Origin: Candidatus Bathyarchaeia archaeon
GTDB lineage: Archaea > Thermoproteota > Bathyarchaeia > Bathyarchaeales > Bathycorpusculaceae
Assembly: GCA_038882955.1 (NCBI GenBank)
Contig: JAVZNC010000002.1
Location: forward strand, 1 to 64,000
Length of the DNA stretch: 64,000 bases
Direction of reading: 5' to 3'
Positions 775-32,036 of the stretch are shown in pieces; the first letter of the stretch is position 1; every line of letters starts with the position of its first letter. Below the pieces are notes generated by a model, which saw nothing but the letters and a program-made list of their open reading frames with translations, had not been told where the DNA came from and did no database searches. A program made the position numbers and the translations under genes.

Positions 775-802
775 TCTTCCGTTAGTCGCTGTTAACGGAA
801 AA
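775..802 (+). other. Xer/dif-like recombination site 1 (TCTTCCGTTAG-TCGCTG-TTAACGGAAAA)
   Basis: 11-6-11 imperfect palindrome (9/11 arm match); 777-806 matches 4273-4302 at 26/30. Confidence 0.65.
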
Positions 803-840
803 GTTGATTGTCAAGTAACAGAAAAATGGCGTTTAATTAT

Positions 841-3800
841 TTAGGGGGATTTCAATTTCTTCTTATTTACGAATATGATGGCAAGTGTCATGAGAATGAT
901 TAACATTGGTAGAATGATGGTTGATGGAAACTCGGGGATTATAATTAATGGCTCTTCAGTTAATGTGAGATCATTATTTGTTGTATCAATTTCACTTATA
1001 ACTGGCGAGATTTTAGCGTTTAAGATGTAGTTGCCATTATCAAAACCTGTTGTATTCCATACAAGCGAGATCGTTGCAAAAATTCCAGGTTCAAGCGTCA
1101 AGACATGCGATGCCACCGCTTTTGCGTTCGCGTAAATAGTAATGTTTAATGTTTCTGTGTAGGCGCCATGGTTGGCAACTGTAACGCTAACCTTAACCGT
1201 TTCGCCGTGGTTCACCAGATTTGAAGAAGGCGTAAGGTTGGTGACAACTGCGTCATGAATGAAGTTGTTGACGTACACCGTTAGTGATTGGTTGCTGGTA
1301 TTGCCTGTACTGTCATAGACTTTAACGAGGATTTCTGTCGCACCATTCTCAAGAGTTGTTGTGTTGAAATTGAAGCTAAAATATGAAACCGAGTAGGAGC
1401 TGAGGTCAAGCGTATCCACCAAGTTGCTATCTATGTATAGCTCCATTTTTTGAAGGCATAAATTGTCAGTTGCAGTACCGTTAATCTTTATAGTGCCATA
1501 GACTACGCTTTCTTCTAAGGGCCGTTCAACGTAAACTTTTGGTAGTTCAGTGTCGTCTGAAGGAAAGCCTGAAGCGGTGAATTCGACTTCTATAATTTCT
1601 GGAGTAGCTGCATCACCATTCTCTTCTTCCGCCATAATGAGGAATATGAATTTGCTGACTCCAGAAGCATGACTTGTAAAGTTGATACTGGGAATGGTCA
1701 CTGTCCAGTTTCCATCATGGTCTGGGTCAGTCATCTCGAAGCGCTCAAAGTTAGGAACCACAAGCGTGCCATTCGGGTTGGGAGGGCTCCAGTCGGGCGG
1801 TTGCATGTGAACTGCTACATGTGCCAAGTTGGTTTTATTCTCAATTTTAGCCCATAACGTCACGCTTGACGGTGGCGGCCAGGTGAATGTTTGCTTTGCG
1901 ATTGCGTAGCTTATCCATGGATATGGCCATTCGCAGTGCCCTATGTAGGTGTTTGCGGCTAATGCGCCATCGCCGTTGTTGGGTAAATAGCCACAGTGAC
2001 CGATTCTGTCACCGTTATCGTCTAACAGGGGGGTTTGTCCTGGCGATGCCATTCTTTGGCATGCGTAGTTGAAAGCGTCCATAATAGAGTGGCCAGATTT
2101 GATGGTGTTCCAGAAGGGTGTAGAAAATTGTTCCCATCCTCCAATAACCCACGAGGATTGGGACACATCACATGAAGTAACAATGATTCGTCCAGATTTT
2201 GATAGAGAGTTTATAAAAGTGCCACTGTAACAAGCTGCGTATATTACGTGCACAGAGGCGTTTGTCGTGGTTTCAAGATTGTTGATCCAATTGGTCATGA
2301 AATGTGGACGAACTACTTCATCGGGATTGATACAAAACTCAAAACTGCCGCCATGATCAAGGAGATAAATGAATAAAGGTGCAGTGGGGCTTACGCGGCT
2401 CGATGCCCATGATTCGATTGCCCATCGGAGATTCGCTACTGTCGAGTTTGCATCAACATCATTCTGGCCATCGCCATCCACATCTTCAGGGTTATATCGG
2501 GGCTGGTGCATCATGTAAATGTCCTCACCAGTATATCCAACTTGTCTAAGTATCTTGTAGACTTGATTGACTCCATAGTTATTAATGCCAACAATTTCAT
2601 CATCGGGCTTGCTTCCTGCTACAAGTATGCAGCAGCCGTCTCCCATTACGGTCATTGGTTGCATGCTGCCCATCCCATTGTTTATGACTTGCATTTCCTG
2701 AGAGAAACCAGTTATCGTAGATCGTATAACATAATTCTTTGGTTGAAATCCACCTGTTTGCCAAAGAAAAGAAACCTTCTCAATCGTTTGGGCGTCTAAG
2801 GATACGAGTTTTGTTCCAATGACTATATTTTCCGCATATACAGTTACGTTGAATTTTTCAGGATATTCCCCCGTGTTCTCAACCATCACATCTATAATGA
2901 CTGGCTTTCCCATTCGTGTGAGAACCTTGGATGTGCTGACGCTAAGAAGTGTAATCTCATGGGGTTGCCTTTGAAAGGGGGTAATCAAAGGATAATAATC
3001 TATGTTTTCAGTGTTGATTTGATAGGGTGTGTCGCCTATGCCGTCGCTGTTTGCGTCAACACTTGTGTAGTCACTCCAGTAGTTGCCGCTGGTGCTACTG
3101 TTCCATTTGTTGTAGAGGTTGTCGTTGGATAGGAAGAATACTTGATAGTCGATGCTGTAGACGAAGTTGTTGTGGTAGAAAGTGTTGTTGTCAGCATGAT
3201 TGTAGAGCTTTATGCCATAATCGTTATAGGTAAGGTTGTTGCCGAACACCGTGTTCAATGTTGAAACCGATTCGACACGTATGCCCTCCTCGTTATACCA
3301 TAGCTCATTTCCAGAGACAATGTTCTCTGAAGACGCGTACATTGATATACCGGCAGCGTATCGTGTTCTGTTGATTTTATTGCCATTTACCTTGTTCCGG
3401 TCTGATTCAACTAAGTGGATGCCCGCTTGATCAATATAGGTCATGATGTTGTCGCTTACAACGGAATTAGTGCACTGATAGAGATTTATGCCCTTATTGT
3501 TATGATCCAACGTGTTTGCTTGAATGATGTTTCCTGCCGATTGCATGAGGTTGATGCCGACGCCGCTACCAAGATTGGCTATGTTGTTGCAGATTATGGT
3601 GCTGTTGTTATTGAAACCGTAATCTGTGTAAACCCCTTGAAGCCCCCGCATAATCGTGTTGTTGACAATCGTGTTGAAATCTGCATTGCCGTGCAATCCA
3701 ATAGCGTAATTGTCATAGTCAAAGTAGTTGTTGGTGATGTTGCTATACATTGTGTTTTGAAGGAGTACTCCATAACTGTAGTTAATTATTTGAGTGTGCG

Positions 3801-4119
3801 TTATCGTAACGTTGTTCACTCCGTTTATGACGAAGCCGCTTACAGCCACTCCATAAGGCGTATTGTTACCATACAATCTATAACCATCACCATCAAATGT
3901 TATTCCGCTTTTTTGCACTATAATCGTAGCGTTAACGTTGCCAACAAGCGAATAGAGATCGCCAGAATGCACAATCAGTGGTGTAGTCGGGCTAACACTG
4001 CCATCAGGCAAAATGTAAATAGTTTCTATTTCCTCATGCACGCTGCCAATTATATTTACTTTTAATAATATGGAACATAAAACAAACAGAATCATTAAAC
4101 TTACAATACACTTTTTCAT
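841..4119 (-). CDS. Cell-surface multidomain protein: NosD/parallel beta-helix + CARDB + clan CD (C13/legumain-like) cysteine peptidase + Ig-like + CARDB + PEF-CTERM anchor
   Basis: Signal peptide; Asn-rich beta-helix repeats ending GNYWSDY; His-Cys dyad motifs FIYLLDHGG and YAACYSGTF; C-terminal IPEF + TM + basic tail. Confidence 0.8.
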   Translation of the reverse strand: MKKCIVSLMILFVLCSILLKVNIIGSVHEEIETIYILPDGSVSPTTPLIVHSGDLYSLVGNVNATIIVQKSGITFDGDGYRLYGNNTPYGVAVSGFVINGVNNVTITHTQIINYSYGVLLQNTMYSNITNNYFDYDNYAIGLHGNADFNTIVNNTIMRGLQGVYTDYGFNNNSTIICNNIANLGSGVGINLMQSAGNIIQANTLDHNNKGINLYQCTNSVVSDNIMTYIDQAGIHLVESDRNKVNGNKINRTRYAAGISMYASSENIVSGNELWYNEEGIRVESVSTLNTVFGNNLTYNDYGIKLYNHADNNTFYHNNFVYSIDYQVFFLSNDNLYNKWNSSTSGNYWSDYTSVDANSDGIGDTPYQINTENIDYYPLITPFQRQPHEITLLSVSTSKVLTRMGKPVIIDVMVENTGEYPEKFNVTVYAENIVIGTKLVSLDAQTIEKVSFLWQTGGFQPKNYVIRSTITGFSQEMQVINNGMGSMQPMTVMGDGCCILVAGSKPDDEIVGINNYGVNQVYKILRQVGYTGEDIYMMHQPRYNPEDVDGDGQNDVDANSTVANLRWAIESWASSRVSPTAPLFIYLLDHGGSFEFCINPDEVVRPHFMTNWINNLETTTNASVHVIYAACYSGTFINSLSKSGRIIVTSCDVSQSSWVIGGWEQFSTPFWNTIKSGHSIMDAFNYACQRMASPGQTPLLDDNGDRIGHCGYLPNNGDGALAANTYIGHCEWPYPWISYAIAKQTFTWPPPSSVTLWAKIENKTNLAHVAVHMQPPDWSPPNPNGTLVVPNFERFEMTDPDHDGNWTVTIPSINFTSHASGVSKFIFLIMAEEENGDAATPEIIEVEFTASGFPSDDTELPKVYVERPLEESVVYGTIKINGTATDNLCLQKMELYIDSNLVDTLDLSSYSVSYFSFNFNTTTLENGATEILVKVYDSTGNTSNQSLTVYVNNFIHDAVVTNLTPSSNLVNHGETVKVSVTVANHGAYTETLNITIYANAKAVASHVLTLEPGIFATISLVWNTTGFDNGNYILNAKISPVISEIDTTNNDLTLTEEPLIIIPEFPSTIILPMLIILMTLAIIFVNKKKLKSP

Positions 4120-4270: not shown

Positions 4271-4298
4271 CGTTCGGTTAGTTGCAGTTAACGGAAAG
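4271..4298 (+). other. Xer/dif-like recombination site 2 (CGTTCGGTTAG-TTGCAG-TTAACGGAAAG)
   Basis: 11-6-11 layout, conserved right arm TTAACGGAAA. Confidence 0.65.
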
Positions 4299-4361
4299 GT
4301 TGTTTACTTATGGGGTGTAAGTGCTTACGGGAGGGGGACAAATTAACGGCACCTTAACAAT

Positions 4362-4436
4362 AGAATAGAAAAAGGGGGAATGTGCGGGAGAAATCGACAA
4401 CTTCTAATAGATTTGGCCGGACTATACTACCGGAGC
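4362..4436 (-). repeat. Direct repeat copy A: tRNA-Glu 5' fragment plus ~50-nt conserved flank (att-like)
   Basis: About 64/75 identity by manual alignment with 32033-32106. Confidence 0.85.
4413..4436 (-). pseudogene. tRNA-Glu-like 5' fragment (positions 1-21, GCTCCGGTAGTATAGTCCGGCCAA), no downstream tRNA body
   Basis: Acceptor 5' strand GCTCCGG, T8A9, D-stem strand and D-loop with G18G19 typical of archaeal tRNA-Glu; anticodon and T arms absent. Confidence 0.75.
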
Positions 4437-4452
4437 CCTGAACTATACTAGT

Positions 4453-4605
4453 CTATTTTCTTTTTCGATATATGGCCACGCCATCCTTCTCGCTATACCT
4501 TACATATTCAAAGCCAGCTTCTATTAATTTGCTTTCTTCTTCCAAGTTTCTGAAAGTGTGGAGTCGAATCTGTGGTAGTTGTGAAGTTTTCTTGCAATCT
4601 GGCAT
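4453..4605 (-). pseudogene. Tyrosine integrase remnant (internally deleted C-terminal fragment)
   Basis: Manual translation MPDCKKTSQLPQIRLHTFRNLEEESKLIEAGFEYVRYSEKDGVAIYRKRK*. The HxxR box is fused directly to a LIEAGFEYV...RKRK tail; the segment with the second His and catalytic Tyr is missing; IARKLHN lies in another frame just upstream. Confidence 0.7.
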
Positions 4606-4643: not shown

Positions 4644-4671
4644 TCTTCTCTTAATCATTGTTAACAGAAAA
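4644..4671 (+). other. Xer/dif-like recombination site 3 (TCTTCTCTTAA-TCATTG-TTAACAGAAAA)
   Basis: 11-6-11 imperfect palindrome (9/11), 22 bp from the stop codon of the terminal island gene. Confidence 0.6.
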
Positions 4672-4693: not shown

Positions 4694-5599
4694 TCATTTA
4701 AATATTTTGAACAATGGGTGTTCTTTCTCTAAAGGTCTTACTTTTGATTCTTGTGCCAACGTGTATGCAACATAAGCGTCTGCTAGTGCACAGTAAAAGT
4801 AAGCGTTTTTCGCGTGTTCAATCGGTCCGTATAAGATGAAGTTGGCTCCGGCAAATATTGGAAAAACATTGGCTACGGTGCATGCAAGTAGATATTCGGT
4901 TTTTTCGAGTTTACGTCTGTCATTCCATCTGGCAACCGCGTTATGCGTTCCAGCTCCACTAGGCAGTCCGTATCTTTCTTTAATTAAGTAAATGGCTTTG
5001 CTTACGGGGCCTGGATCTGGTAAATCGAGAACCGCGGTGTCCACTAGCATGTTTTCTATGCCGGCCTTTTGGGCTACGCCTATAAGTTCATCCATTACTT
5101 GTAATCTTCCAGAAACTGTGGGATTTTTGGTATTAAGCGCTAGAAGTATTGCAGATTTAATTTTAGCCTCTTTGATTGCCGAGATTTCTTCCTCTTTAAT
5201 GTGGGGCGTTATAGAGTTATAAACCGTTCTTTCAGACAAGCCAGTTTCTTTAACGTATTTTAGCCCAGCGATTCGCACTTCGGCTGTCGCGCCGTCTATT
5301 GTAAATGGTCCTTTTATTGTATTCGCCACGAAATCTAAGAATTTTTCGAAGGCTTCAGGCCAAGAGCAGCAAACGTCAACTATTCTCGGGTTTCCTGTTT
5401 TTTTTGAGACTTCCTCTTCCTCTTTTAGCAGTTCTTCAGCTTTATCCTTATCAAACTCGCCTTTTCTCTCGTCCTTAACTATTTTGTGTTTATGGTAGAA
5501 TATGCTTCCAACCATAACTGTGGGAAGCTGGCCTGGTTGCCCTCCAACTTTTACACCAGATATGTTAAAAATTTTCTGTTCCTTTTCAAATCTGAACAT
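4694..5599 (-). CDS. MtrH-like methyl-corrinoid:tetrahydropterin methyltransferase (MtoA/MtgA-type MT2)
   Basis: N-terminus MFRFEKEQKIFNISGVKVGGQPGQLPTV.VGSIFY and C-terminal HPL motif typical of the MtrH family; no other mtr genes nearby. Confidence 0.85.
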   Translation of the reverse strand: MFRFEKEQKIFNISGVKVGGQPGQLPTVMVGSIFYHKHKIVKDERKGEFDKDKAEELLKEEEEVSKKTGNPRIVDVCCSWPEAFEKFLDFVANTIKGPFTIDGATAEVRIAGLKYVKETGLSERTVYNSITPHIKEEEISAIKEAKIKSAILLALNTKNPTVSGRLQVMDELIGVAQKAGIENMLVDTAVLDLPDPGPVSKAIYLIKERYGLPSGAGTHNAVARWNDRRKLEKTEYLLACTVANVFPIFAGANFILYGPIEHAKNAYFYCALADAYVAYTLAQESKVRPLEKEHPLFKIFK

Positions 5600-5605
5600 T
5601 CTTAA

Positions 5606-7495
5606 TCACCCGTTTAGAAGGCGACTTACTGATGGAAATCTATTTAAATTTTTATGCGGGATTAGCGTTGCTTCTGCAAATTCTTTATTGAAGTTCGGAT
5701 CTGCAGCCAATTCTACATAACGCACCTTCTCCGATATTGCATTAGCTTTTTCTCTGGCATCGATTGAGATTAGAGCCATTTTTGCGCCTACGATTGCTGT
5801 GTTACCAACAAACTCAATTTTATCCACCGGAATGTCTGGTATTAACCCTATAGCTATCGCGTTTTCAGTATCTATATAATTTCCAAAAGCTCCTGCAACG
5901 AAAACCCTATCAATATCTTTCTCTTTCAATTTTTTCTTCTTCATCAGTATTGAACAACCAGCGTATATAGCTGCTTTTGCAAGTTGTATTTCACGTATGT
6001 CCTTTTGTGTCACTGTAATTTCTTTTGCAGTTTTGGCTTCATTCGCCCAAGCAACAACGAATTCCATTTCGCCGTCCTTCTTCCGCAATCTTTCAGTTTT
6101 TATGTTGGGATTAATTTTTCCTCCAGAGTCTATTATTTTACGCTTAAACATTTCTGCCACCAAGTCGATCATAGCTGAACCGCATAATCCAATAGGTTTT
6201 TCATCCCCTATTGTTGTGTATTCAACATCAAAATTTTGATTTATTTGAACTCTCTCTATAGCACCTTTCACAGCCTTTACTCCATGCTTAATGTGAAAGC
6301 CTTCAAATGCTGGGCCGGAAGCGCACGAGCATGAAAGCATATCACGACAGTTACCTACCAATACTTCTGTATTCGTTCCTACATCGATCAGCATGGAAAT
6401 CTCTTCCGAATCACATATTCCGCACGCTAAAGCATCTGCAACGGCATCAGCTCCGACGAATCCAGCTATAACTGGAAGGAGTGTTACGATTCCTGATGGA
6501 TTTATCCTCATTTTTAATTCACTAGCCTTAACGTTTACTTGTTTTTTTACCGCAGGCGTAAAAGGTGACAATGCAACATGTTTTGGCTGAATCCCAAGGA
6601 ACAGGTGGTGCATGGCAGTGTTACCCACAACCACAACTTCATATATCTTATTTGGATCGCGGTTTCTCCTTTTACACACGTCGCCTATTATTCCATTTAT
6701 GGAATCTACAACAACTTTTTGAAGAGATCTCAAATTTTCGGGACGAGTCGCCGCAAAAGTTATTCTACTTATTATATCCTCGCCATAGGCAAGTTGAGGA
6801 TTTTCAAGTGATTCTATGTCAAGGGTTTTGCCGTTCATCAAATCTACCAAATAACACACGATTTTTGAAGTCCCTATATCCACGGCTAAGCCGAGCATTT
6901 CGTTGGATGTATCTCCTGGTTCTATAGAGATCATTTTGCACATATTCCAGATGGTTGCTGTCACGTTGAAGTTTGACTGACGAAGGGTTGTAGGTAACTC
7001 CCTGAGAATTTTATAGTCTATTTCTATGCTATTAGACTTGTAAATGCGTGGCAATGAGTCAACCACTCTTTCGTAATCTGGTCGTATGTCTGATAGCGTA
7101 GGTTCAGGCATTATGACGTGAATTTTTCTTACGGCAGGTTTTGGCGGCAAGGGTTTCTCAATTCCAACAACTTGAATTCTTCTGGTTTTCAGATGACTCT
7201 CAACTGGAAGCATGACGGTTGTATCTCTCAAAACTCTGGCTTGGCACGCCAACCTATAGCCTTGGCGAATTTCAGAAGCAGATAAATGCTTCTTTTCAGA
7301 CTCTGTCAGTTCACTTAAATCCGCGGGTTCTTTAACAACCACCCTACATTTTCCACATAACCCGGCTCCACCACATTCAGATCTAATGCGGATGCCGGCA
7401 TCTCTAGCTGCTGTGAAAATCGTGTTTCCCGCTTGTACTTCAATTTTCTTTGAAATTGGTTCAAACATGACTTTCACATTTTTGTTTAAAGCCAT
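5606..7495 (-). CDS. Reductive activator of corrinoid proteins (RACo/RamA-like; 2Fe-2S ferredoxin + ASKHA ATPase)
   Basis: CGGAGLCGKC...RLAC 2Fe-2S motif; DIGTS, GFVGAD, DVGTNTE, GPAFEG, AGAFG motifs; start refined to ATG 7495. Confidence 0.9.
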   Translation of the reverse strand: MALNKNVKVMFEPISKKIEVQAGNTIFTAARDAGIRIRSECGGAGLCGKCRVVVKEPADLSELTESEKKHLSASEIRQGYRLACQARVLRDTTVMLPVESHLKTRRIQVVGIEKPLPPKPAVRKIHVIMPEPTLSDIRPDYERVVDSLPRIYKSNSIEIDYKILRELPTTLRQSNFNVTATIWNMCKMISIEPGDTSNEMLGLAVDIGTSKIVCYLVDLMNGKTLDIESLENPQLAYGEDIISRITFAATRPENLRSLQKVVVDSINGIIGDVCKRRNRDPNKIYEVVVVGNTAMHHLFLGIQPKHVALSPFTPAVKKQVNVKASELKMRINPSGIVTLLPVIAGFVGADAVADALACGICDSEEISMLIDVGTNTEVLVGNCRDMLSCSCASGPAFEGFHIKHGVKAVKGAIERVQINQNFDVEYTTIGDEKPIGLCGSAMIDLVAEMFKRKIIDSGGKINPNIKTERLRKKDGEMEFVVAWANEAKTAKEITVTQKDIREIQLAKAAIYAGCSILMKKKKLKEKDIDRVFVAGAFGNYIDTENAIAIGLIPDIPVDKIEFVGNTAIVGAKMALISIDAREKANAISEKVRYVELAADPNFNKEFAEATLIPHKNLNRFPSVSRLLNG

Positions 7496-7721
7496 ATTTT
7501 GTCGCCTATCTAAAAGGTGGCTAGGTTTCAACGCTTTTATTATTTTCCTTATTTCGTTCATATTTTCTTTTTAATTCAGCAACTTGTATGAAATGGACAA
7601 CTTTCTTCCCCTTTATACGCTACACTTCATCCGCGTTCATGGATGTTGATGTAAACTTTTAAAAATAAAGGATCTAACCATATATACTTTCCAATCATTG
7701 ATTTACAGGTGGTGTCAAAAC

Positions 7722-8768
7722 TTGGATGAAAAACGCGTGAAAGCTGAGGATTTATTCAATTTTTGTGTAAGCGTTCTTAAACGTGTTGGCGTGAAGGATG
7801 ACGACGCGAAAATAATTGCGGATAATCTAATTTTAGCTAATTTGAGGGGTGTGGATTCACATGGCATTGCAAGGCTACCAACTTATGTTGAAAGGGTCGT
7901 AAGAGGGCATATCAACCCGCAAGGTTCAATAGAGATTGTGAAGGAGCATGGTGCAACGGTGCTTATAGATGCGCATAATAATTTTGGCCAAGTTGCTGCA
8001 ATGCATGCAACCAACCTAGCAGCTCAAAAAGCTAGAAAGTTTGGGGTGTCATCCATTGGAGTTAGAAACGCCAACCATTTTGGCATGGCCGCGTATTATG
8101 CGCTTAAGCTTACTGACCAGAAACTGATAGGCATAGTTTTATCAAATAGTCCACCAGCCATCCCCCCATGGGGAGGAAAAACGCCCATGTTCGGCACCAA
8201 TCCAATCTGCATAGGTTTTCCAATGAGCAAAGGTGATTCCATTATTTTAGATATGGCTATAAGTGCCGCTGCGCGCGGAAAAATACGGCTGGCAGCATTA
8301 AAGGGTGAAAAAATACCTGAAGGCTGGGCCTTTGATGACGAAGGAAATCCAACAACCGATCCGGCGGCTGCTCTCAAGGGGTCGCTTGCCCCGATAGGTG
8401 GACCTAAGGGTTATGGATTGGCTCTTGTGTTGGATTTGCTTTGTGGATTGGTTACTGGTTCATGTTATCTTCGGAATGTTAAAGCGCTTGATGATTTCAG
8501 CGGACGCTCTGGAACTGGCTTCTTTATTGAAGCTATTGACATCGAGTCATTTATTCCCTATAAAGAGTATGAGGAAAAAATTGCTAGCTACGCAAAAGAG
8601 GTTAAAGATTGCCCTAAAAGAGATGGGGTAAATGAAATATTTTTGCCAGGGGAAATTGAGAAAAGGGAGTTGGAGCGCAGAGTTAAACTTGGTATACCGC
8701 TAGATCAAGAAGTTGTATCAGCGTTAAAAAAATTGGCTGAGAGATTTGGCGTAAAGCCTCCAGTTTAA
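7722..8768 (+). CDS. Ldh_2 family 2-hydroxyacid dehydrogenase (ComC/AllD/malate type 2)
   Basis: RGVDSHG, NHFG, GTNP, DMA, GGPKGYGL, PGE motifs; TTG start after a GGTGG RBS. Confidence 0.85.
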   Translation: MDEKRVKAEDLFNFCVSVLKRVGVKDDDAKIIADNLILANLRGVDSHGIARLPTYVERVVRGHINPQGSIEIVKEHGATVLIDAHNNFGQVAAMHATNLAAQKARKFGVSSIGVRNANHFGMAAYYALKLTDQKLIGIVLSNSPPAIPPWGGKTPMFGTNPICIGFPMSKGDSIILDMAISAAARGKIRLAALKGEKIPEGWAFDDEGNPTTDPAAALKGSLAPIGGPKGYGLALVLDLLCGLVTGSCYLRNVKALDDFSGRSGTGFFIEAIDIESFIPYKEYEEKIASYAKEVKDCPKRDGVNEIFLPGEIEKRELERRVKLGIPLDQEVVSALKKLAERFGVKPPV

Positions 8769-8775
8769 ATGGTTC

Positions 8776-10599: not shown

Positions 10600-10658
10600 T
10601 TTTGAACCCTTCGAATCAATTTTGAAGCGTTAAATCTATGTCGAAACAGTAAGATCTG

Positions 10659-11027
10659 CTATTTTTTGGCTCTTTGTCTTATGCTTTTCTCGTCTCCAGG
10701 AGGTGTGTAAACCCACAAAAATTGAAGTTCTTCTTCTCCAGAATTTTCTATGGTGTGTATTTCGTTAGGCGGCAAGTAAACTAGATCGCCGGCCTCGAGG
10801 ATTTGCACTTCTTTCGCGCTTGAAACTTTAGCCTTTCCCTTTAGAATGAAGATTGTTTCTTCGCCCGTATGAGCATGCGGAGCACCTTTCTCGCCTGTTG
10901 GATAAACTGTGAACCCTAAAGCTAGATGTTTTGAGCCTAAAACAGGATCCATCAGTATTTTGGTTACCTTTCTGGATGGTGGAGGCGCAGGAAATGTGGG
11001 GGCATTCTCTTTTCTAACTATTATCAC
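10659..11027 (-). CDS. Cupin_2 domain protein
   Basis: HAHTGEE...G and LPPNEIH metal-binding cupin motifs. Confidence 0.85.
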   Translation of the reverse strand: MIIVRKENAPTFPAPPPSRKVTKILMDPVLGSKHLALGFTVYPTGEKGAPHAHTGEETIFILKGKAKVSSAKEVQILEAGDLVYLPPNEIHTIENSGEEELQFLWVYTPPGDEKSIRQRAKK

Positions 11028-17553: not shown

Positions 17554-17554
17554 A

Positions 17555-21577: not shown

Positions 21578-21590
21578 ATAAGTTTTATAT
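21578..21590 (+). promoter_or_regulatory. BRE/TATA promoter ATAAGTTTTATAT (ABC binding-protein operon)
   Basis: Identical to 20118-20130; 49 bp upstream of the ATG. Confidence 0.6.
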
Positions 21591-21639
21591 ATGAATTTTA
21601 GAGATTAAAGTTGTACTCGAAAATGGAGGTTTCAATTCG

Positions 21640-22929: not shown

Positions 22930-22974
22930 GCCAAAACATAGCCTTCTCTTTTTATTTTTTGGTGGGATAAAATC

Positions 22975-24791: not shown

Positions 24792-25492
24792 AGACCCAAA
24801 AAAGCTTCCTTAACATAATCGTTATTCAGAAGATCTACGCCCTTCCCTTCCAGTGTTATTTTTCCAGTCTCCATTACATAGGCGCGGTCAGCACATTTTA
24901 ATGCTTGATTGACGTTTTGTTCTGCAAGTAAAATGCTGACTCCATGCTCTTTAAGTCTTCTTAAAGCTTCAAACACTTCTAAAGTGACTTTTGGCGCCAG
25001 TCCCTGTGATGGCTCATCCAAAATCAACAATTCTGGGTTTGACATTAAACCGCGTGCTATAGCAAGCATCCTCTGCTCTCCCCCGCTTAACGTGACAGTT
25101 ACTTGTTTTTCCCTATCCTTCAATACTGGAAAAAGCTGATAAACTTGTTTGATTGTTTCCTCTTTAGAGCCCTTTCCTCTAGAGCTGTAAGCGCCTAGAA
25201 TCAAGTTTTCACGAACCGTCATGCCAGCGAAAAGTTTTCTGTCTTCAGGTATAAACGCTATCCCTAAATCTACAATTTTGTACGGAGGCATGTTGTTAAT
25301 TTCTTTGCCGTTAAATCGAATAACTCCCGACGCTGGTTTTAATATTCCAGCAATTGCGCTTAAAAGACTTGTTTTTCCAGCTCCATTAGCGCCCACTAGC
25401 GTCACAAACTCGCCTTTTTCAACGTGAACAGAAACATCCCATAAAACCTGAATTTTACCGCGCAAAACATTTAACTGTTTAACTTCAAGCAC
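24788..25492 (-). CDS. livF: HAAT ABC transporter ATPase (LivF-like)
   Basis: GANGAGKT, PEDRKLF, LSGGEQRML, DEPS.GLAP; start refined to GTG 25492. Confidence 0.9.
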   Translation of the reverse strand: MLEVKQLNVLRGKIQVLWDVSVHVEKGEFVTLVGANGAGKTSLLSAIAGILKPASGVIRFNGKEINNMPPYKIVDLGIAFIPEDRKLFAGMTVRENLILGAYSSRGKGSKEETIKQVYQLFPVLKDREKQVTVTLSGGEQRMLAIARGLMSNPELLILDEPSQGLAPKVTLEVFEALRRLKEHGVSILLAEQNVNQALKCADRAYVMETGKITLEGKGVDLLNNDYVKEAFLGL

Positions 25493-26213
25493 AGCCTTCA
25501 CCCAAAAAAGCTTCAATGACCGACGGTTCCTTGGTTATTTCACAAGGCTTCCCCTCAGCTATCTTCATGCCTTGGTGAAGCGCCATAATACGATCCGTTA
25601 CCTCCATTATGGCGCGCATGTTGTGTTCAACCATAAAAATTGTGATTCCCTCGTCATCACGCAATCGTCTAATCACCTTAAGCAGCTGTACAGTTTCAGT
25701 TGGGTTTAAACCCGCCATCACTTCGTCTAATAATAGGAGTTCGGGTTTTATTGAAAGTGCTCGGGCAATTTCAAGCATTCTAAGCTGGAAAATTGTTAAG
25801 CTTGAAGCGGGCATCATGCTCTTTTCAGCTAATCCAAATTTTTCAAGTATCACATTGAGTTCACGTTTAAGGTCGGAAAACTTGCCTTTAGCACATCCAA
25901 AAAGAGCCGCCGCGTAAACATTCTCATAAACCGTCATGTTAAGGAAAGGTTTCGGTATTTGAAATGTTCTTCCGATGCCTAGCTTACAAATTTTGTGCGG
26001 CTTAAGACCAGTTATGTCTATACCTTTAAACTTTATTGTTCCAGAAGTTGGGCGAAACGCTCCAGATATCACGTTAAAAAGCGTGCTCTTTCCAGCTCCA
26101 TTAGGACCTATCAGACCAACTATTTCTCCTTCGCTTAAACTAAAATCCACGTTGTTTAGAGCAGTTAGCCCTCCGAATTTCTTTGTAACTTTTGTTCCTT
26201 CAATAAATTCCAA
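25485..26213 (-). CDS. livG: HAAT ABC transporter ATPase (LivG-like)
   Basis: FGGL.A, GPNGAGKS, RTFQ, DE..AGL, VEH. Confidence 0.9.
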   Translation of the reverse strand: MEFIEGTKVTKKFGGLTALNNVDFSLSEGEIVGLIGPNGAGKSTLFNVISGAFRPTSGTIKFKGIDITGLKPHKICKLGIGRTFQIPKPFLNMTVYENVYAAALFGCAKGKFSDLKRELNVILEKFGLAEKSMMPASSLTIFQLRMLEIARALSIKPELLLLDEVMAGLNPTETVQLLKVIRRLRDDEGITIFMVEHNMRAIMEVTDRIMALHQGMKIAEGKPCEITKEPSVIEAFLGEGCA

Positions 26214-26233
26214 GGTATTTTCCCCACAAATTG

Positions 26234-27556
26234 TTATTTGTACACGCCATACTTTTTAGTAGCGTCAATCATCGCCTTAACATTTTCAGGTTTTGCCTTA
26301 TCAATAACCGCTCCATTCATCAAAATAAATCCTCCGCCTTCGCCAGCAACATCTATAAGCGTCCTTACATATTCTTCCACATCTTTAGGAGTACCTACTT
26401 GCAACAATGCGCTCGGCACGTTACCTCCGATGCAAGCCACATCACCCAAGATTTCCTTGGCTTTGCCCATGTCAGTCTGATCAAAACCCCACAATGTCTT
26501 GCCCTTAGGCAAGTCTCTAATTATTTCTAGACGCGATCCATAGCCTCCTTCAGCCCATGGAAAAGGCACACATCCTTCATTAATTAAGCCTATGATAACT
26601 TTCTTGAGGGTGGGCCAGTAGAAAGTTTCAAACTGTTTTGTGGACATAAATCCGTCTGCACCCTTATGCAAGGGTATGAAAACTATTGGGTTTCCATTCA
26701 TCTTCGCTGCTGAAGCACCCATTTTAATCATTAAGGGCGTCATAACTTCCATTGCTTGTAAGAGCTTATCCTTATTGCGGTACATGTCAAGCATTATCCC
26801 TTTTGTTCCTCTTAGGGTATCGCCAAGCGTGTCGAATGGCGCTTTGGTTCCTCCACCCCAAAAGTTGGGAAAACCAGCAGCGGTAATTTCCTTCTCCCAC
26901 GTCGCTACGTGTCCTATCCACTTTAGGACTTCGTTTCCTGCATCCATCATTGCCTTCAAGGCAGCTTGGACGTCGGGGAAGCCGAATGGTATGAAATTGG
27001 CTGGGGTAAAGCCTCCATACATTTCCAGTACGTTAGTGAACTGTGGAAGCTTCTTGAAAGGCTCTAAAGCGCCAAATACCCTTGGAAAATAGGTTGTTAA
27101 GAAGAAGTTTGTTGGATCTTGAATCAAAAGGTCATATTCATCAGCCTTCATGTACTCGCCTTCAATGCATTGATAAGAATGTTCTGGAGAAACTCCATGT
27201 CCAGGCCAAGCATATAACTTGTAGTCAAGAATTTCGAAGAATTTTCCGGGGCCGGGACCTATCGCTCCTCCATGAGCGTCAGGCTCAAAGTCTAAAACAT
27301 ATTTTTTAAACGCGAAAGTAAGCTTTTCATAGTCATACATCATATCATAAGCAGTTAAGCCAACATAATAGGCTGGGAAAAACCCTACTATTGGATAAAC
27401 AGGCACTCGATCGGGCAATTTTTTCAACTGAATAGCGTCCTTTATCCTAGTCACTCTCTTCTTATAATCGTTTTCAGCTTTTTCGCTGGCAAAAGTTACG
27501 CCAGCAGGAGAAAGCCATCGTTTGAACAATTCCTCTCTTTTTTCATCTGCCGACAA
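26234..27556 (-). CDS. URO-D-superfamily substrate:corrinoid methyltransferase (MtoB/MtgB-like putative O-demethylase, MT1)
   Basis: PDRVP, YMK.DEYD, APFD.LGD.LRG.KG, PLHKG..GFMS, EG.Y..RLE, FD.TD, GNVP; immediately downstream of a corrinoid protein. Confidence 0.8.
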   Translation of the reverse strand: MSADEKREELFKRWLSPAGVTFASEKAENDYKKRVTRIKDAIQLKKLPDRVPVYPIVGFFPAYYVGLTAYDMMYDYEKLTFAFKKYVLDFEPDAHGGAIGPGPGKFFEILDYKLYAWPGHGVSPEHSYQCIEGEYMKADEYDLLIQDPTNFFLTTYFPRVFGALEPFKKLPQFTNVLEMYGGFTPANFIPFGFPDVQAALKAMMDAGNEVLKWIGHVATWEKEITAAGFPNFWGGGTKAPFDTLGDTLRGTKGIMLDMYRNKDKLLQAMEVMTPLMIKMGASAAKMNGNPIVFIPLHKGADGFMSTKQFETFYWPTLKKVIIGLINEGCVPFPWAEGGYGSRLEIIRDLPKGKTLWGFDQTDMGKAKEILGDVACIGGNVPSALLQVGTPKDVEEYVRTLIDVAGEGGGFILMNGAVIDKAKPENVKAMIDATKKYGVYK

Positions 27557-27559
27557 CTT

Positions 27560-28198
27560 TCACTCCACTCCTACCCACTTTTTTGCTAAAGATACCGCGT
27601 CCATTGCGTCTTTACCATAAGCATCAGCACCGACATATCGCCGTATCTCCTCGGTTATCTGGCCGCCTCCAATCATGATCTTTACTTTGTCCCTTAAACC
27701 CGCTTTTTCAATGGCTTCTACCGTCCTTTTCATAGATTCAAAGGCTAGTGTTAAGAAACCGCTTAGGCCAACAATTGTGGCGCCAGTCTCCTTTATTTTT
27801 TCAACAAACTTCTCCTCTGGAACATCCACGCCTAAGTCGTAAACTTCAAAGCCGTTAACCTCTAGCATGAAAACCACTATGTCTTTACCAATATCGTGTA
27901 TGTCGCCAGCAACTGTTCCAAAAACTATCTTGCCCAGACGTTTGATTTGTGTTTTCTTGGCTAGTTTAGGCTTTATCATAGCTGTTATTGTTTTAAGTAT
28001 CTCGCCAGCGTAGAGAAGGTCAGATATGAAGTATTCGCTATTGGCAAAACGGTTACCAACAATCTCCATTGCTCGGCGAATGTACTCCATTATCTTAAAT
28101 GGATCCTCGCCTGCCTTAAGCATGTCATTAACCATTTTAACAGCTTCTTCTTCCTTCAAGTCTGCCAAAGCATTAACGAATTCTTCTGAATTTACCAT
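27560..28198 (-). CDS. Methyltransferase corrinoid protein (MtoC/MtgC-like)
   Basis: B12 motif GDIHDIGK, LGVDV, GLSG, IGGG; start refined to ATG 28198. Confidence 0.92.
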   Translation of the reverse strand: MVNSEEFVNALADLKEEEAVKMVNDMLKAGEDPFKIMEYIRRAMEIVGNRFANSEYFISDLLYAGEILKTITAMIKPKLAKKTQIKRLGKIVFGTVAGDIHDIGKDIVVFMLEVNGFEVYDLGVDVPEEKFVEKIKETGATIVGLSGFLTLAFESMKRTVEAIEKAGLRDKVKIMIGGGQITEEIRRYVGADAYGKDAMDAVSLAKKWVGVE

Positions 28199-28390
28199 GG
28201 TCATCATCACTCGTGTTGATAATCTTTGTACGATAAAAAATTTGCTCTTAAAAGTTTTGGATCCAACATAAACCGTAATTATGCCGATCGTATATTTCTC
28301 GAAAAAGCACATGTGAAATTAAAGTATCCCTATGAAAAACTTAAAATTATCAGTTAGCATGACAAGCGAATAATGGTTGAGGGGGCACAC

Positions 28391-30259
28391 ATGAATAAAA
28401 ATCCTAATTCTTGGTCTGGCTATATGGGGCAAGTTTTAAGGGTAAATTTGACGCGCCGCAAATTCATCGTAGAACCATTGAAGAAGAATTTTGTCGAAAG
28501 ATTTGTTGGCGGTCGCGGATTCGGCATCAAGGTGCTATTCGATGAAGTGCTAAAAGGAACCGATCCGCTGAGCCCAGAAAATAAGCTGGTTTTATCAGTA
28601 GGTCCATTAACTGGCACCAAGGCGCAGTCGGCGAGCAGGTGGATTGCACAATTTAAATCTCCACTTACAGATGCGTACTGCAGAAGTGTTGGAGGAGGAT
28701 TTTTCGGGGCTGAACTCAAGTTTGCCGGGTATGACGCAATAATCGTTGAGGGTGCCTCTGAAAAACCTGTTTACCTGTGGATAAACGATGACAAGGTTGA
28801 ATTCATGGATGCTTCCAAAGTTTGGGGTATGACAACCCTAGCTGCTCGCGATTTTATCCGCGATGATACAGATGAAAAGGCTAGAATGATTATGATAGGT
28901 CCAGCAGGAGAAAGACTTGTAAAAATCTCAGCCATTGTGACGGATGACATGCGAACCGCGGCGAGGGGTGGCGGCGGCGCAGTTATGGGGTCCAAAAAAC
29001 TTAAGGCCATAGTCGTGAAAGGCTCTAAGCGACCAACGATTTATAACGATAAAGCCTTTGATAGCGCGGTGAAAGCGCAAGTAGAAGCTTACCGCAGAAA
29101 CCCGGGCTTTGAGGGGTTTAGAAGCCTAGGTACAAACGGCATAGTATACTTGTTCTATACCATGGGCAACTTTCCAACATATAACTTCAAACAGCTCCCG
29201 TTTGAAGGAGCTCAGAGGTTTACACCAGATGTTTTAGCTAGCTACGTGGTTAAACATGATGGTTGCTACGGCTGCATGATTAGGTGCTGGAAGAAATTCA
29301 AAATTACAAAGGGGCCCTACGCTGGAATCGCTTGGGATTTTCCCGAATACGAAACTCACTGGTCGTATGGCGGAGCCATTGGAAACAGCAATATAGAGGC
29401 AATATCTTATGCCAACATGCTTTCAGACCTTTATGGCTTGGACACCATATCCACTGGAGTAGCAATAGCCTTTGCCACCGAACTCTACGAGAAAGGCATC
29501 ATAGGAAAAAGTGAAACGGGAGGTCTTGAGCTTAGATGGGGCGATCCAGAAGTTTTAGTTGAGCTTGTGAAGCGCATTGCCCTAAGAATAGGCATAGGCG
29601 AACTGCTTGGAGAGGGGGTCAAAAGAGCCGCTGAAGTTATAGGGAGAGGCGCCGAAAAGTACGCCATGCACGTTAAGGGTCTTGAATTTCCCGCCTACGA
29701 TCCGCGCTCACTAAAAGCTCACGGATTAAGCTTCGCCACCTCGCCAATAGGCGCAAGTCACTGCATTGGCTGGAACAAATTTGAGATATTGGGTGTTCCA
29801 AGAAAGGTTGACCCTTTTGCTACTAAAGGCAAGGGAGAAATAACCAAGTACGTGCAAGATGAAATCGCAGCGGCTGAAACAGCGGTTTTCTGTTCTTTCC
29901 CGATCAGCAACGATATGATAACTTTAGAATTGTATAGTGAGTTATTATATTCTGCCACTGGCATTGAAAAATTCAAAGATCCAAAGTATCTGTGGCTAGT
30001 AGGAGAAAGAATCTTTAACCTTGAAAAGGCATTCATAGCCAGAGAAGGTTTTGATGTTAATTACGATTCAATGCCCGAAAGGATACTTAAAGAACCAGTG
30101 CCTAGAGAACCCTCCAAAGGGCAAATCTTCGAGCTTGATGTGCTCCTTAAAGAATACTACAAAACTAGAGGCTGGAACAAACTGGGCGTGCCCACAAAGG
30201 AGAAACTTGCCGAGCTAGGATTAGTGGAAGCAGCTAATGAGCTCTATAATTCACCATAA
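28391..30259 (+). CDS. aor: W/Mo-pterin aldehyde:ferredoxin oxidoreductase family (second copy)
   Basis: ARGGGGAVMGSKKLKAI, CYGCMIRC, PEYET, LDTIS, YDPR. Confidence 0.9.
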   Translation: MNKNPNSWSGYMGQVLRVNLTRRKFIVEPLKKNFVERFVGGRGFGIKVLFDEVLKGTDPLSPENKLVLSVGPLTGTKAQSASRWIAQFKSPLTDAYCRSVGGGFFGAELKFAGYDAIIVEGASEKPVYLWINDDKVEFMDASKVWGMTTLAARDFIRDDTDEKARMIMIGPAGERLVKISAIVTDDMRTAARGGGGAVMGSKKLKAIVVKGSKRPTIYNDKAFDSAVKAQVEAYRRNPGFEGFRSLGTNGIVYLFYTMGNFPTYNFKQLPFEGAQRFTPDVLASYVVKHDGCYGCMIRCWKKFKITKGPYAGIAWDFPEYETHWSYGGAIGNSNIEAISYANMLSDLYGLDTISTGVAIAFATELYEKGIIGKSETGGLELRWGDPEVLVELVKRIALRIGIGELLGEGVKRAAEVIGRGAEKYAMHVKGLEFPAYDPRSLKAHGLSFATSPIGASHCIGWNKFEILGVPRKVDPFATKGKGEITKYVQDEIAAAETAVFCSFPISNDMITLELYSELLYSATGIEKFKDPKYLWLVGERIFNLEKAFIAREGFDVNYDSMPERILKEPVPREPSKGQIFELDVLLKEYYKTRGWNKLGVPTKEKLAELGLVEAANELYNSP

Positions 30260-30283
30260 AAATTCACTTTCATGTGATTCAAA

Positions 30284-30544
30284 ATGAAAGTTCGCGTTAA
30301 ATTTGCAGGAGCTGCGCACAAAAGGTTCAGTTTAACAGACATCTGGCTTTTTTTACATGATTATGCTACGGTTGAAGATGCTTTTATAAAACTTAAGGAA
30401 CAAGGAGTTGACATAAAACCAGGAGATGCCACCATAACGGTTTTGGTGAATGGAAGACGCATAGAATTTATTGGCGGACTCAAAACAAAACTCAAAGATA
30501 TGGACGAAATTGTTTTGATGCCCATAATTGCTGGAGGGCTCTAA
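30284..30544 (+). CDS. MoaD/SAMP ubiquitin-like protein (ends GGL)
   Basis: Beta-grasp pattern VLVNGR...L.D.DEI.LMP.IAGG; follows aor. Confidence 0.8.
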   Translation: MKVRVKFAGAAHKRFSLTDIWLFLHDYATVEDAFIKLKEQGVDIKPGDATITVLVNGRRIEFIGGLKTKLKDMDEIVLMPIIAGGL

Positions 30545-30593
30545 ATTAAATCTGAATGTTGTTTCGCAAGAATAATATTGGGAGTTAAAGGGT

Positions 30594-31934
30594 TTATGCT
30601 TTTACTAGCGTTATTGCTTTGACGGGGCAAACCATGGCGCATAGTCCGCATCCTATGCACTTGTCAGAAACCATGATTTTGTTGTCTTTTAAGTAGAGCG
30701 CTGCGCAGATGTTGTCAACGCATGTTTTGCATAATGTGCACTTTGCTTCATCGACTTTTGCTTTGGCAGTTACGTCCACCGCTTCATCCGCGGTTTTTAG
30801 CTGTTTAATTCCAACTTTTCGTATTTCTTCTATGCTGTCGTAGCCCTGCTCCGTCATGAATCTTTTAATAAATTCAAGTTCAGACCTCAGGAAGCGGATT
30901 CCCTTGAAGAATACGGTGGCGCATTGTCCTGCGGCCTTTGCTCCAAGCATTATTATCTGGATTATGTGTTCTGCGTTCATTAGGCCTCCCATAGCCAGTA
31001 TGTCCAGCTCTGGTACGAACATGCTTATGGCAGCAACATGTTTGCGTATAATTGGTCTTAGTGGCTCGCCTCCATATCCGATAAGTGGATTTCCATCTGT
31101 GAATGGCAATGTCGTTTTCCCTTTGTTGTAGATGTCTGGTGGCGGAATAGTTACACCCATGTTGGCAGTGGTAATGAAAGATGCACCAGCCTTTTTTGCT
31201 CTTCTCGCAATTTCTACGACCCTTGGAAAACCTGTTTCTGGCGTAAGTTTGACCCCCACAGGGATGCTTACCTCTTGAGTAACTTCTTTAACTACATCCT
31301 CTATGAATTCAGGGGAGTCGCCCATAATGGCACCCATATTTGCGAATATGAATTTTCCATCTAGAAACGCATTTATGTTTCCTCTAACCGTGGCGAAGAA
31401 GGGACATGACACGTTTAACTCAATCATATCAAGACCTGCCTCTTCCGCCTTCTTTGAAGCTATTCGGAAAGATTCTGGGTCTCCCGCGGCTTCAATATTG
31501 GCGATCAGCGGAACGTCTGGAGGTTTGTTTTTCTTTAGCATGTTGATGATGGGCATTTTAAGCTCCAATGACTTTGCAAAACCCTCTATCGGAATGCCAT
31601 AGGGCGTCATAGCTCCTAACCTATGTAGGAAGCATCCTTCTCCATCCTTCATCCATCGCCTCACTGGTCTACCACCGAAATGTTTCCGTATAATTTCTCG
31701 CCATTCCTGCGACGAAACCTCCTTTTTCTTTTTCTGAACGTATTCCTCTGGAAGAGAACAAAGCGCTCCTACCGAAATATATCCTGCACCAGCCTCGGCA
31801 GATTTAAGTAATATTTTCGCTACATCCTCGTCAGGTATCGAGCTGCCCATAAAAGTTGCTATCGCACCAATGCCTATCGGGCTAGGAAGCCTTATCCCCG
31901 CAAAATCAACAGATAATCTCTCATCCCTTGTCAT
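30594..31934 (-). CDS. Dihydroorotate/dihydropyrimidine dehydrogenase (PreA-like) FMN enzyme with C-terminal 4Fe-4S dicluster
   Basis: ELNVSCP, VKLTP, GG, CxxCxxC...C and CIGCGLC..VCP. Confidence 0.8.
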   Translation of the reverse strand: MTRDERLSVDFAGIRLPSPIGIGAIATFMGSSIPDEDVAKILLKSAEAGAGYISVGALCSLPEEYVQKKKKEVSSQEWREIIRKHFGGRPVRRWMKDGEGCFLHRLGAMTPYGIPIEGFAKSLELKMPIINMLKKNKPPDVPLIANIEAAGDPESFRIASKKAEEAGLDMIELNVSCPFFATVRGNINAFLDGKFIFANMGAIMGDSPEFIEDVVKEVTQEVSIPVGVKLTPETGFPRVVEIARRAKKAGASFITTANMGVTIPPPDIYNKGKTTLPFTDGNPLIGYGGEPLRPIIRKHVAAISMFVPELDILAMGGLMNAEHIIQIIMLGAKAAGQCATVFFKGIRFLRSELEFIKRFMTEQGYDSIEEIRKVGIKQLKTADEAVDVTAKAKVDEAKCTLCKTCVDNICAALYLKDNKIMVSDKCIGCGLCAMVCPVKAITLVKA

Positions 31935-32008
31935 AGACGTCCTCCAACTTGTTGAATAAATGACTGTTCAAGGACTTATATATTAATCTTTTATTAGAGT
32001 TTTGAGAA

Positions 32009-32036
32009 TTTTTTGTTAGTTGCGGTTAAAGGAGAA
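32009..32036 (+). other. Xer/dif-like recombination site 4 (TTTTTTGTTAG-TTGCGG-TTAAAGGAGAA)
   Basis: Core GTTAG-TTGCRG-TTAA shared with site 2; abuts repeat B. Confidence 0.55.

Follow-up and report, generated by a model that had tools for sequence, protein, structure and literature searches.

We analyzed a 64,000-nucleotide (nt) stretch of DNA from Candidatus Bathyarchaeia archaeon (assembly GCA_038882955.1, contig JAVZNC010000002.1, positions 1 to 64,000; hereafter the window), and found that four related 28-bp sites within it belong to a family of recurring sites that bound cassettes of unrelated genes. The window is C2:1-64000 of a 1.54-Mb genome in 31 contigs (G000). Each site consists of two 11-bp imperfect inverted arms around a 6-bp spacer. 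The sites fall into six classes by their spacers, occur in a fixed order and orientation inside elements integrated at tRNA genes, and lie at the centers of mosaic junctions. We conclude that they are probably heterospecific crossover sites of the tyrosine-recombinase type that belong to the tRNA-integrating elements of Bathyarchaeia and allow cargo to be exchanged between elements. A preliminary description of the window had proposed that host Xer or a related recombinase shuffles cassettes between dif-like sites in an integron-like array. The idea of cassette boundaries is supported by our results, as is the 11-6-11 core geometry of a tyrosine-recombinase site; the Xer/dif and integron labels are not.

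The sites form a family that is clustered in islands

The four 28-bp strings of the preliminary description are present on the + strand (Table 1), and its distances from sites to genes were borne out (38 bp and 22 bp from stop codons, and 74 bp from a start codon). The minimal feature that it had singled out, TTAR-N6-TTAA, is present in all four sites, but taken alone it occurs at chance frequency (15 matches compared to 12.97 expected). The sites share a longer core, TTCYGTTA-GTnnCnGT-TAACRGAA. There were 16 exact strand matches to the core TTCNNTTARNNNNNNTTAANNGAA in the genome, compared to 0 in an order-3 Markov shuffle, and 44 compared to 3 when one mismatch was allowed; together these matches collapse to 24 places in the genome. 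A weight matrix built from the four window sites found many more strong copies on other contigs. With an arms-only matrix that ignores the spacer (threshold 16), we called 25 sites in the genome and 1 in the shuffle. Site 4 is the weakest of the four and has two mismatches to the core, yet it was called by the arms-only matrix.

The distribution of the 25 sites is far from uniform. Outside open reading frames (ORFs) of at least 100 amino acids (aa), allowing an overlap of ≤5 nt, there were 21 sites, with such ORFs making up 89.7% of the genome (P = 1.5e-17). The same number lay within 8 kb of a contig end, a zone that holds 20.1% of the genome (P = 1.3e-11). A check run on the site positions showed clustering in islands, and neither a genome-wide spread nor a fixed distance from promoters. 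Within the window only the four sites reached a score of ≥15, and the next-best match, at 62486, scored 12.1, in agreement with the earlier remark that the housekeeping half has no full sites.

The family extends well beyond this genome. The exact core was found in 12 of the 41 relatives' genomes, and in 44 of 151 genomes (21 of 70 genera) in a sample of the family; a reversed-pattern control in the 151-genome sample gave 13 strand hits in 9 genomes. A pattern for the class of site 1 (class A, see below) occurred in 46 stretches in the contigs of 185,579 species genomes (one per species), nearly all of them titled Bathyarchaeia or Bathyarchaeota, where approximately one match would be expected by chance (596 Gb, two strands, 20 fixed bases). 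The same pattern was found in at least 120 stretches of metagenome contigs and in 0 stretches of viral contigs.

Two other readings of the sites were dropped. TATA-like boxes, seen by eye on the minus strand after each of the four window sites, first suggested promoter operators; copies of the site lie between convergent genes (C7:1032, C6:1463, C6:79027, C8:13097 and C12:373), and the sequences downstream of sites do not align. A hairpin in RNA or DNA was set aside on the little compensatory change between the arms, as judged by eye on the site list. We also observed, 25 nt after the class-E site of contig C7 (approximately 7141-7160), a mini-palindrome of the same half-sites (TTCTGTTA / AACAGAA) with a gap of only approximately 4 nt, followed by arm-like sequence resembling window 4375-4400.

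Spacer classes occur in a fixed order and orientation

The spacers define six classes. Class A has the spacer TCGCTG, class B TCATCG, class C TGTCTC, class D TAACGT or TAATGT, and class E TTGCAG, with variants; class F comprises several spacer variants in near-palindromic sites. The four window sites are A, E, B-like and E-like, in that order. Across the family the spacer was more conserved than arm positions 6-7 and 22-23.

Using class references taken from this genome, we found the layout F+ D- C+ B+ A+ E+ (or its reverse complement) in approximately 25 fetched loci from approximately 17 other genomes. There were few exceptions, consisting of one locus (L049) and duplicates of the same class. 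We counted transitions between adjacent sites in 94 loci with at least two sites, drawn from genome and metagenome contigs and ascertained through class A. There were 115 forward, 12 same-class and 7 backward transitions. The forward transitions were mostly B to A (56), C to B (22), C to A (12) and D- to C (10), with smaller numbers of D- to A (6), A to E (5), F to D- (2) and D- to B (2). The same-class transitions were A to A (11) and C to C (1). There were no flips of orientation among classes A, B, C and E in the 94 loci, and only D was inverted.

The arrays lie inside elements integrated at tRNA genes

The arrays sit inside elements bounded by attachment (att) sequences and integrated at tRNA genes, with an integrase adjoining the tRNA gene and a partial copy of the tRNA at the far end. 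In one relative, G007, a 12.9-kb element lies between 30-nt direct repeats of the 3' end of tRNA-Cys, and its order is att, E, A, C, C, D, x, a 505-aa protein, a 118-aa protein, integrase, tRNA-Cys. Another relative, G011 (2 contigs, 98% complete), has at least eight sites in five separate regions. One of these is a 33-kb element with an att-like copy approximately 90 bp from the thermosome gene (903.5 kb), sites E, A, B and C at 903.6-912.9 kb, D at 928.0 kb and F at 931.2 kb, and then a gene for a protein of approximately 170 aa, an intact integrase and tRNA-Glu (936.85 kb). Between its C and D sites lie approximately 15 kb with Mrp/NUBPL, hydrogenase, radical-SAM, VIT1 and ABC genes. Around the G011 element at 16-23 kb we detected no direct repeat.

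The backbone of these elements recurs. It includes the integrase (400-490 aa), an archaeo-eukaryotic primase (AEP; PF22548), a 592-aa protein, a 97-118-aa protein, a MarR-like protein and the ~170-aa protein. The overall layout is integrase, replication genes, often the ~170-aa gene, then F, D, C, B, A, E, an arm and att. Both features of archaeal elements that integrate at tRNA genes by a tyrosine integrase, namely an integrase abutting the tRNA and a partial tRNA repeat, were seen in G007, in G011 and in the window together with contig C5 of the same genome.

The ~170-aa protein had no Pfam match above the cut-off and no PHROG match, and a Foldseek search against the PDB gave nothing at E ≤ 0.001, with only coiled-coil entries. 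Its AlphaFold model has a mean predicted local distance difference test score of 73, with a disordered N-terminus followed by two helices. From the N-terminal pattern and the model, read by eye, it is a putative ribbon-helix-helix protein. A copy of this family with an in-frame TGA is present at approximately 279036-279455 of C2 (L002), where it adjoins a 395-aa gene with a weak PF00589 match (277777-278964) at the F/D end of a far-end C-B-A array. On contig C12 (L011), two genes adjoin an integrase at 9914-11335. The first (7206-8597) encodes a 463-aa protein with a weak GHKL ATPase match (HATPase_c, E = 0.0016), and the second (8590-9921) a 443-aa protein that matches phrog_6247 'DNA topoisomerase' (E = 4.9e-50) and, weakly, Top6A/Spo11 Toprim (E = 0.09). 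Together the two genes may encode a pair resembling a type IIB topoisomerase, carried by the mobile element.

Homology breaks at the sites

The slots between sites hold 0.2-27 kb of unrelated cargo, including surface proteins, restriction enzymes and metabolic operons. Between A and E, for example, the window has a NosD-like gene, contig C7 a Type IIG restriction-modification gene, G011 a gene for a Peptidase_C39 protein and G007 a 91-aa ORF. Between F and D there is no cargo in G011 (95-120 bp), and contig C4 has a 470-aa gene there. The C7 gene (1003 aa) is flanked by co-oriented sites at 3945 and 7090; relative to the NosD-like gene it lies on the opposite strand with the same orientation of sites, which also speaks against promoter operators.

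Alignments between genomes begin and end at the sites. A relative, G006, matches window 776-2580 at 81% (BLASTN), starting at the outer edge of site A. On the other side of the same site, window 1-724 is 97% identical in nucleotides to G011:C1:1177486-1178209, and the match stops 2 bp short of the A site of G011. The block of E, arm and att is 95% identical between the window and G011:C1:903515-903674. A block made of C, a gene for a 180-aa O-methyltransferase and B is 87.5% identical in nucleotides between G011 and G031, which are from different families; the aligned region covers the C site except for its first few bp and extends to the outer edge of B. Two arrays of G011 share a methyltransferase gene that stands beside B, and there the alignment stops at the edge of B. 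Contig C8 and G011 have a 402-aa gene in common, at 90% identity up to a point 2 bp short of a D site. One B-A cassette was found with both of its outer flanks unrelated, as was the C-O-methyltransferase-B block, and in the slot analysis each of the four flank positions recombined independently. The preliminary proposal that the sites bound cassettes was supported, with sizes of 0.2-27 kb, and gene content and homology break at the sites in relatives and in other metagenomes.

Flanks were 95-97% identical in nucleotides between genera whose thermosome genes are 82% identical. Because window 1-724 matches at 97%, this comparison indicates a recent transfer of that surface-protein gene segment between genera. 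Approximately 50 nt upstream of the NHL-repeat gene in this segment (window 685-735) recur at 88-91% identity in several other places in G011 and G006, some of them beside A sites, and may represent a promoter or leader that surface-protein genes have in common. Among 166 loci surveyed for cargo near A sites (L056-L221), 47 had large Kelch/PKD/NosD surface proteins, 13 the Type IIG restriction-modification gene of the C7 type, 8 ABC ATPases, 7 Csa1 and 5 Cas1.

Alternative joints were also seen in hot-spring metagenomes. The stretch occurs in sequencing runs from seven studies, all of them of hot-spring metagenomes, and we aligned contigs (not raw reads) from four runs to window 1-9000, which shows alternative joints and not their frequencies. 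Run contigs carry the NosD cassette (807-4291). In run X2 the NHL flank joins the A site and is followed by unlike sequence after 801; in run X4 there is unlike sequence before E, from 4273; and in run X7 the sequence diverges after 4291. In the X2 and X4 contigs, 7-11 other nucleotides stand in place of window 717-776, a stretch of 55-60 nt immediately to the left of site A; this matches the arrangement in G011, where the flank abuts the A site.

Arms are linked to their own flanks

We used the class-A sites to locate the joints more finely. There were 154 sites, from a total of 165 unique ones, with 60 nt of flank on both sides, and a flank was taken as shared at ≥85% and as unshared at ≤45%. 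In pairs that shared only the left flank (n = 15), the left arm was identical in 14 and the right arm in 2. In pairs that shared only the right flank (n = 60), the right arm was identical in 55 and the left arm in none. Similarly, there were 12 left-flank families with at least two right partners, and the left arm was invariant in 11 of them; in 15 right-flank families with at least two left partners, the right arm was invariant in 11 and the left arms differed in all 15. When only the inner 9 nt of each arm were compared in right-only pairs, the arm proximal to the shared flank was identical in 50 of 54 (93%) and the distal arm in 12 of 54 (22%), with a background of 24-26%. Classes B, C and D gave the same direction on few pairs. 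Since loci that share one flank share only that flank's arm, the exchange falls within the central part of the site: the joints lie between arm positions 7 and 22, inside the invariant central 14 bp TTAG-spacer-TTAA.

The window holds two tandem elements at tRNA-Glu

The window contains two tandem integrated elements at tRNA-Glu(CTC), of which the older is decayed and has lost its backbone (Table 1). In the direction of the tRNA, the locus starts with the thermosome gene, a 780-aa gene, att2, an arm and site 4 (E'). The older element continues with the 27-kb cargo, site 3 (B) and the integrase remnant. The younger element has att1, an arm, site 2 (E), the NosD-like gene, site 1 (A) and the NHL-repeat gene, at which the contig ends. 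The locus ends on contig C5, with the 3' end of an integrase and then tRNA-Glu. Synteny with G011 is seen at the thermosome gene and past it (74-93% aa identity).

Table 1. Features of the window, with coordinates in the numbering of the 64,000-nt stretch.
Feature	Coordinates	Strand	Description
NHL-repeat surface protein gene	1..498	-	Cut by the contig end; beyond site A
Site 1	775..802	+	Class A, spacer TCGCTG; divides the NHL-repeat gene side from the NosD-like cassette
Cargo of the A-E slot, 1092-aa secreted/surface-type protein	841..4119	-	NosD, Beta_helix and Big_7 matches
Site 2	4271..4298	+	Class E, spacer TTGCAG; terminal site of the array, adjoins element arm and att
Element arm between site E and att core	4299..4416		att-proximal ~55 nt (4362-4416) common to the copy at 32033-32082
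att1 core	4417..4460	-	44 nt, 100% identical to C5:277-234
Integrase C-terminal remnant	4453..4605	-	50 aa and stop; last ~30 aa are the integrase 3' end that abuts tRNA-Glu on C5
Site 3	4644..4671	+	Class B-like; spacer TCATTG differs from TCATCG at 1 position; truncated integrase remnant is 39 bp away
27-kb cargo between B and E'	4694..31934		Catabolic genes
Site 4	32009..32036	+	Class E-like with spacer TTGCGG; its arms are the weakest; in the older element it is the terminal site and adjoins arm and att2
Arm copy and att2 core	32037..32106	-	32083-32106 are the first 24 nt of tRNA-Glu
Thermosome gene	34622..36289	-	Conserved chromosomal flank; in G011 ~90 bp from an att-like fragment and E site

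The repeat that had been described as att is present, and we corrected its identity to a 5' fragment of tRNA-Glu(CTC) next to an arm of the element. There were no RNA genes in the window by ARAGORN or Rfam, and the repeat was resolved through the tRNA-Glu(CTC) gene on C5 (C5:258-335): att1 consists of 24 nt upstream of this gene and its first 20 nt. Both att copies are followed by a shared non-tRNA arm of approximately 50 nt and then by an E-class site. The 50-aa ORF between sites 2 and 3 is truly the C-terminal end of an integrase, as had been proposed. The integrase on C5, which runs off the start of the contig, has an LGH...Y motif in its C-terminus and adjoins tRNA-Glu; an intact homologue of 425 aa lies beside tRNA-Glu in G011 (C1:935557-936834).

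The gene between sites 1 and 2 had been called a peptidase, and it matched no peptidase family; it is 80% identical in amino acids to the gene beside the A site of G006. The 27-kb cargo encodes MtrH, RACo, Ldh_2, two AFORs, a creatininase-like protein, a CoA-transferase, a thiolase, ADH, a 3-hydroxyacyl-CoA dehydrogenase/enoyl-CoA hydratase, a rhodanese protein and a binding-protein ABC transporter, with no syntenic counterpart in the interval of G011 from the thermosome gene to tRNA-Glu. Sites 3 and 4 do lie near its ends, as the preliminary description had it. The bounds of the cargo are given more simply by the two tRNA-Glu att copies, from tandem integration mediated by integrase, with sites 3 and 4 as internal features.

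A model of cassette exchange and the evidence that weighs against it

We propose that the compatibility of two sites as partners would be set by the spacer, because of the geometry of the sites, the conservation of the spacers, the fixed order and orientation, and the joints centered in the sites. The six classes share their arms and differ in their conserved spacers, and neighboring sites should not recombine with one another; with unlike spacers in neighbors, the array would stay ordered and the cargo between sites would not be deleted. This does not fit the shuffling of integron or pdif type that had been suggested. Sites of the same class on two elements, either a resident and an incoming element or two that are co-resident, could recombine by enzymatic strand exchange in the spacer. 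One crossover would fuse the elements, and a second at another class would swap the segment between them, as in recombinase-mediated cassette exchange (RMCE). A circle that carries one site could integrate and so produce duplicates of the same class. More broadly, and tentatively, the arrays may be a natural cassette-exchange platform, in which six orthogonal spacer classes in fixed order act as addressable docking points, and the element integrase or an unrecognized enzyme reassorts surface-protein, defense and metabolic modules of 0.2-27 kb across genera.

Several observations weigh against this model. The conservation of the class-A spacer is partly a matter of ascertainment, as the collecting pattern fixes the spacer, and many of the class-A pairs are mutually dependent. 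For pairs that share only the left flank, the inner 9 nt were identical in 12 of 13 proximal arms and also in 9 of 13 distal arms, above the background of 26%; because the distal inner arm is so often identical, these pairs resolve the breakpoint poorly. The crossover is narrowed only to 14 bp, and thus short-homology recombination at a protein-binding site would give the same mosaic. Sites of the same class are present several times per genome (four class-A sites in G011, for example), so that an unregulated recombinase would rearrange them. No circular intermediate was seen in the contigs of the runs, which are not raw reads.

The search for the enzyme also weighs against the model, in that no recombinase could be tied to the sites. 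There were 11 PF00589 matches in this genome. Two of these are XerA-like paralogues of 318 aa that are 80% identical to each other (C7:52314-53270 and C23:387-1343), and their best solved relatives are XerA 5hxy and 4a8e. With an XerA-like query (E ≤ 1e-20), there were matches in only 2 of 41 genomes (G000 and G026, the latter with two copies), and none in the array-bearing genomes G011, G006, G007, G009 and G031, contrary to the proposal that host Xer acts on the sites. The gene looks sporadic, possibly mobile, and not part of the core genome; both copies in this genome follow a tRNA-Leu gene and an ORF of 182 or 185 aa. A divergent tyrosine recombinase (the type found at L228 in G011) is near some arrays and is present in 36 of 151 genomes, and it was not enriched with the sites (13 of 44 site-positive genomes and 23 of 107 site-negative ones). 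Serine recombinases (PF00239) had no match in G000, G011, G007 and G044, one match above cut-off in G006 and one below threshold in G104, and are not general. The element tyrosine integrase is the only recombinase family present in all of the array-bearing genomes that were inspected, and both of the two PF00589 genes of G006 belong to it. This family is found in 33 of 41 genomes, whether site-bearing or not, and its att cores are, by eye, unlike the 28-bp sites. We infer that it would be the default candidate.

Alternative explanations

The main rival is that the sites are operators or architectural sites for a DNA-binding protein of the element, such as the ~170-aa or the MarR-like protein, which would insulate or regulate cargo and help the attP complex near E. 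The fixed order would then reflect common descent, and the mosaics would arise by short-homology recombination at the only conserved stretches. The limited resolution of the crossover (14 bp) is compatible with this. In five loci an F-type site lies 169-190 bp upstream of the start of the ~170-aa gene, and 14 of the 15 genomes (among 151) with this gene also hold sites; however, 30 of the 44 site-positive genomes had no match to it (E ≤ 1e-8). The distance from the E-class site to the att core is always 47-119 bp, a position at which one would expect arm-type or accessory sites, and the mini-palindrome in C7, with the same arms and a 4-nt gap, is beside an E site. Against these points, sites occur where convergent genes meet and may flank a gene on either side regardless of its strand, and an identity of 14-24 bp is little to account for that number of independent exchanges (27 flank families). 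Across genera, moreover, the spacers form discrete classes and the variation is at arm positions 6-7 and 22-23, whereas a dimeric operator would be expected to show the opposite. We regard this alternative as rather unlikely.

A second alternative takes the sites as dif-like targets of the host XerA, with the arrays as Xer-exploiting modules, of the pdif type or like integrative mobile elements exploiting Xer recombination (IMEX), that XerA shuffles. It would account for the 11-6-11 geometry and for the TTA/TAA at the inner ends of the arms, and the C23 copy of the XerA-like gene is 177 bp from an E-class site. The scarcity of the protein in array-bearing genomes, the presence of approximately 25 sites per genome inside integrated elements in place of one terminus site, the heterogeneous and ordered spacers, and a co-orientation unlike that of the alternating pdif pairs make it very unlikely. 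The idea that the sites are replication signals of the element, for primase or single-strand initiation or with fork polarity, oriented from an origin near D/F, is hardly credible: the strict co-orientation of C, B, A and E, the inverted D near the replication module and the AEP primase in the backbone would suit it, but it leaves the position-specific conserved spacers and the site-centered breaks of homology unexplained, and arrays persist in decayed elements that lack replication genes, such as the older element of the window.

Comparison with known systems

Heterospecific cassette exchange, the process that we favor here, has its closest counterpart in the laboratory. Engineered RMCE (loxP/lox511, FRT/F3 and orthogonal Bxb1 att sites) likewise uses shared arms and differing spacers, with two unlike sites flanking a cassette that is stable against excision and yet exchangeable; in the present case we observed the structure, and exchange would be its consequence. 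RMCE is a laboratory design, whereas here there are six ordered classes in natural mobile elements. In the portions of the literature that our searches covered, natural cassette exchange at heterospecific sites did not appear, and the searches returned engineering papers only.

The pdif modules of Acinetobacter and IMEX are similar in that short 28-bp sites of 11-6-11 geometry bound accessory modules and mark mosaic junctions. Recombination at pdif sites depends on the host XerC/XerD, and successive pdif sites have alternating orientation; IMEX are flanked by compatible dif copies of their own. In contrast, the sites described here are co-oriented (only D is inverted), have heterospecific spacers and lie within elements that bear an integrase, and no conserved Xer was found. 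The Xer/dif system itself has 28-bp sites of 11-6-11 geometry, a single terminus site and the host XerA, according to the parts consulted of two papers (PMC2958812, PMC8371274). The geometry is alike, and one difference lies in the single dif (rarely two) per chromosome compared to approximately 25 element-borne sites in this genome.

The attC sites of integrons are mutually compatible and are found in no fixed order. Integron arrays resemble those described here in having co-oriented recombination sites that separate promoter-poor cassettes, with a tyrosine recombinase as the expected actor. Integrons, including archaeal ones, need IntI, attI and attC sites that are recognized through single-strand folding, as set out in the parts consulted of Ghaly et al. 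2022 (PMC9668308). Unlike these, the sites here are 28-bp palindromes of duplex type, in six ordered classes and with little compensatory variation between arms (by eye). The PF00589 matches that were inspected, with no search specific for IntI, were element integrases, XerA-like proteins and one divergent family.

Hotspots HS1-HS5 of the SXT/R391 integrative and conjugative elements (ICEs) carry variable cargo at fixed positions in a conserved backbone. They lie between conserved backbone genes and are exchanged by homologous recombination. The fixed positions of cargo are alike; in the arrays described here only the 28-bp site is conserved between slots. Finally, the sites of serine recombinases (invertases and resolvases) imply a resolvase-family enzyme, and a general one was not encountered here.

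Implications for gene exchange in Bathyarchaeia

To our knowledge, the known cassette systems (integrons, pdif modules and shufflons) use sites that are mutually compatible. Ordered heterospecific sites, if the model is true, would be a different design, in which the array is stable and each segment can still be replaced. The six 28-mers are testable substrates for finding the enzyme, and they might be of use as orthogonal, thermostable sites for genome engineering. The sites also mark hypervariable islands that break metagenome assemblies. If true, the model would amount to a new mode of modular gene exchange between elements, across genera in hot springs, and it would account for the traffic of surface proteins, restriction systems, CRISPR parts and entire catabolic operons between genera of Bathyarchaeia.

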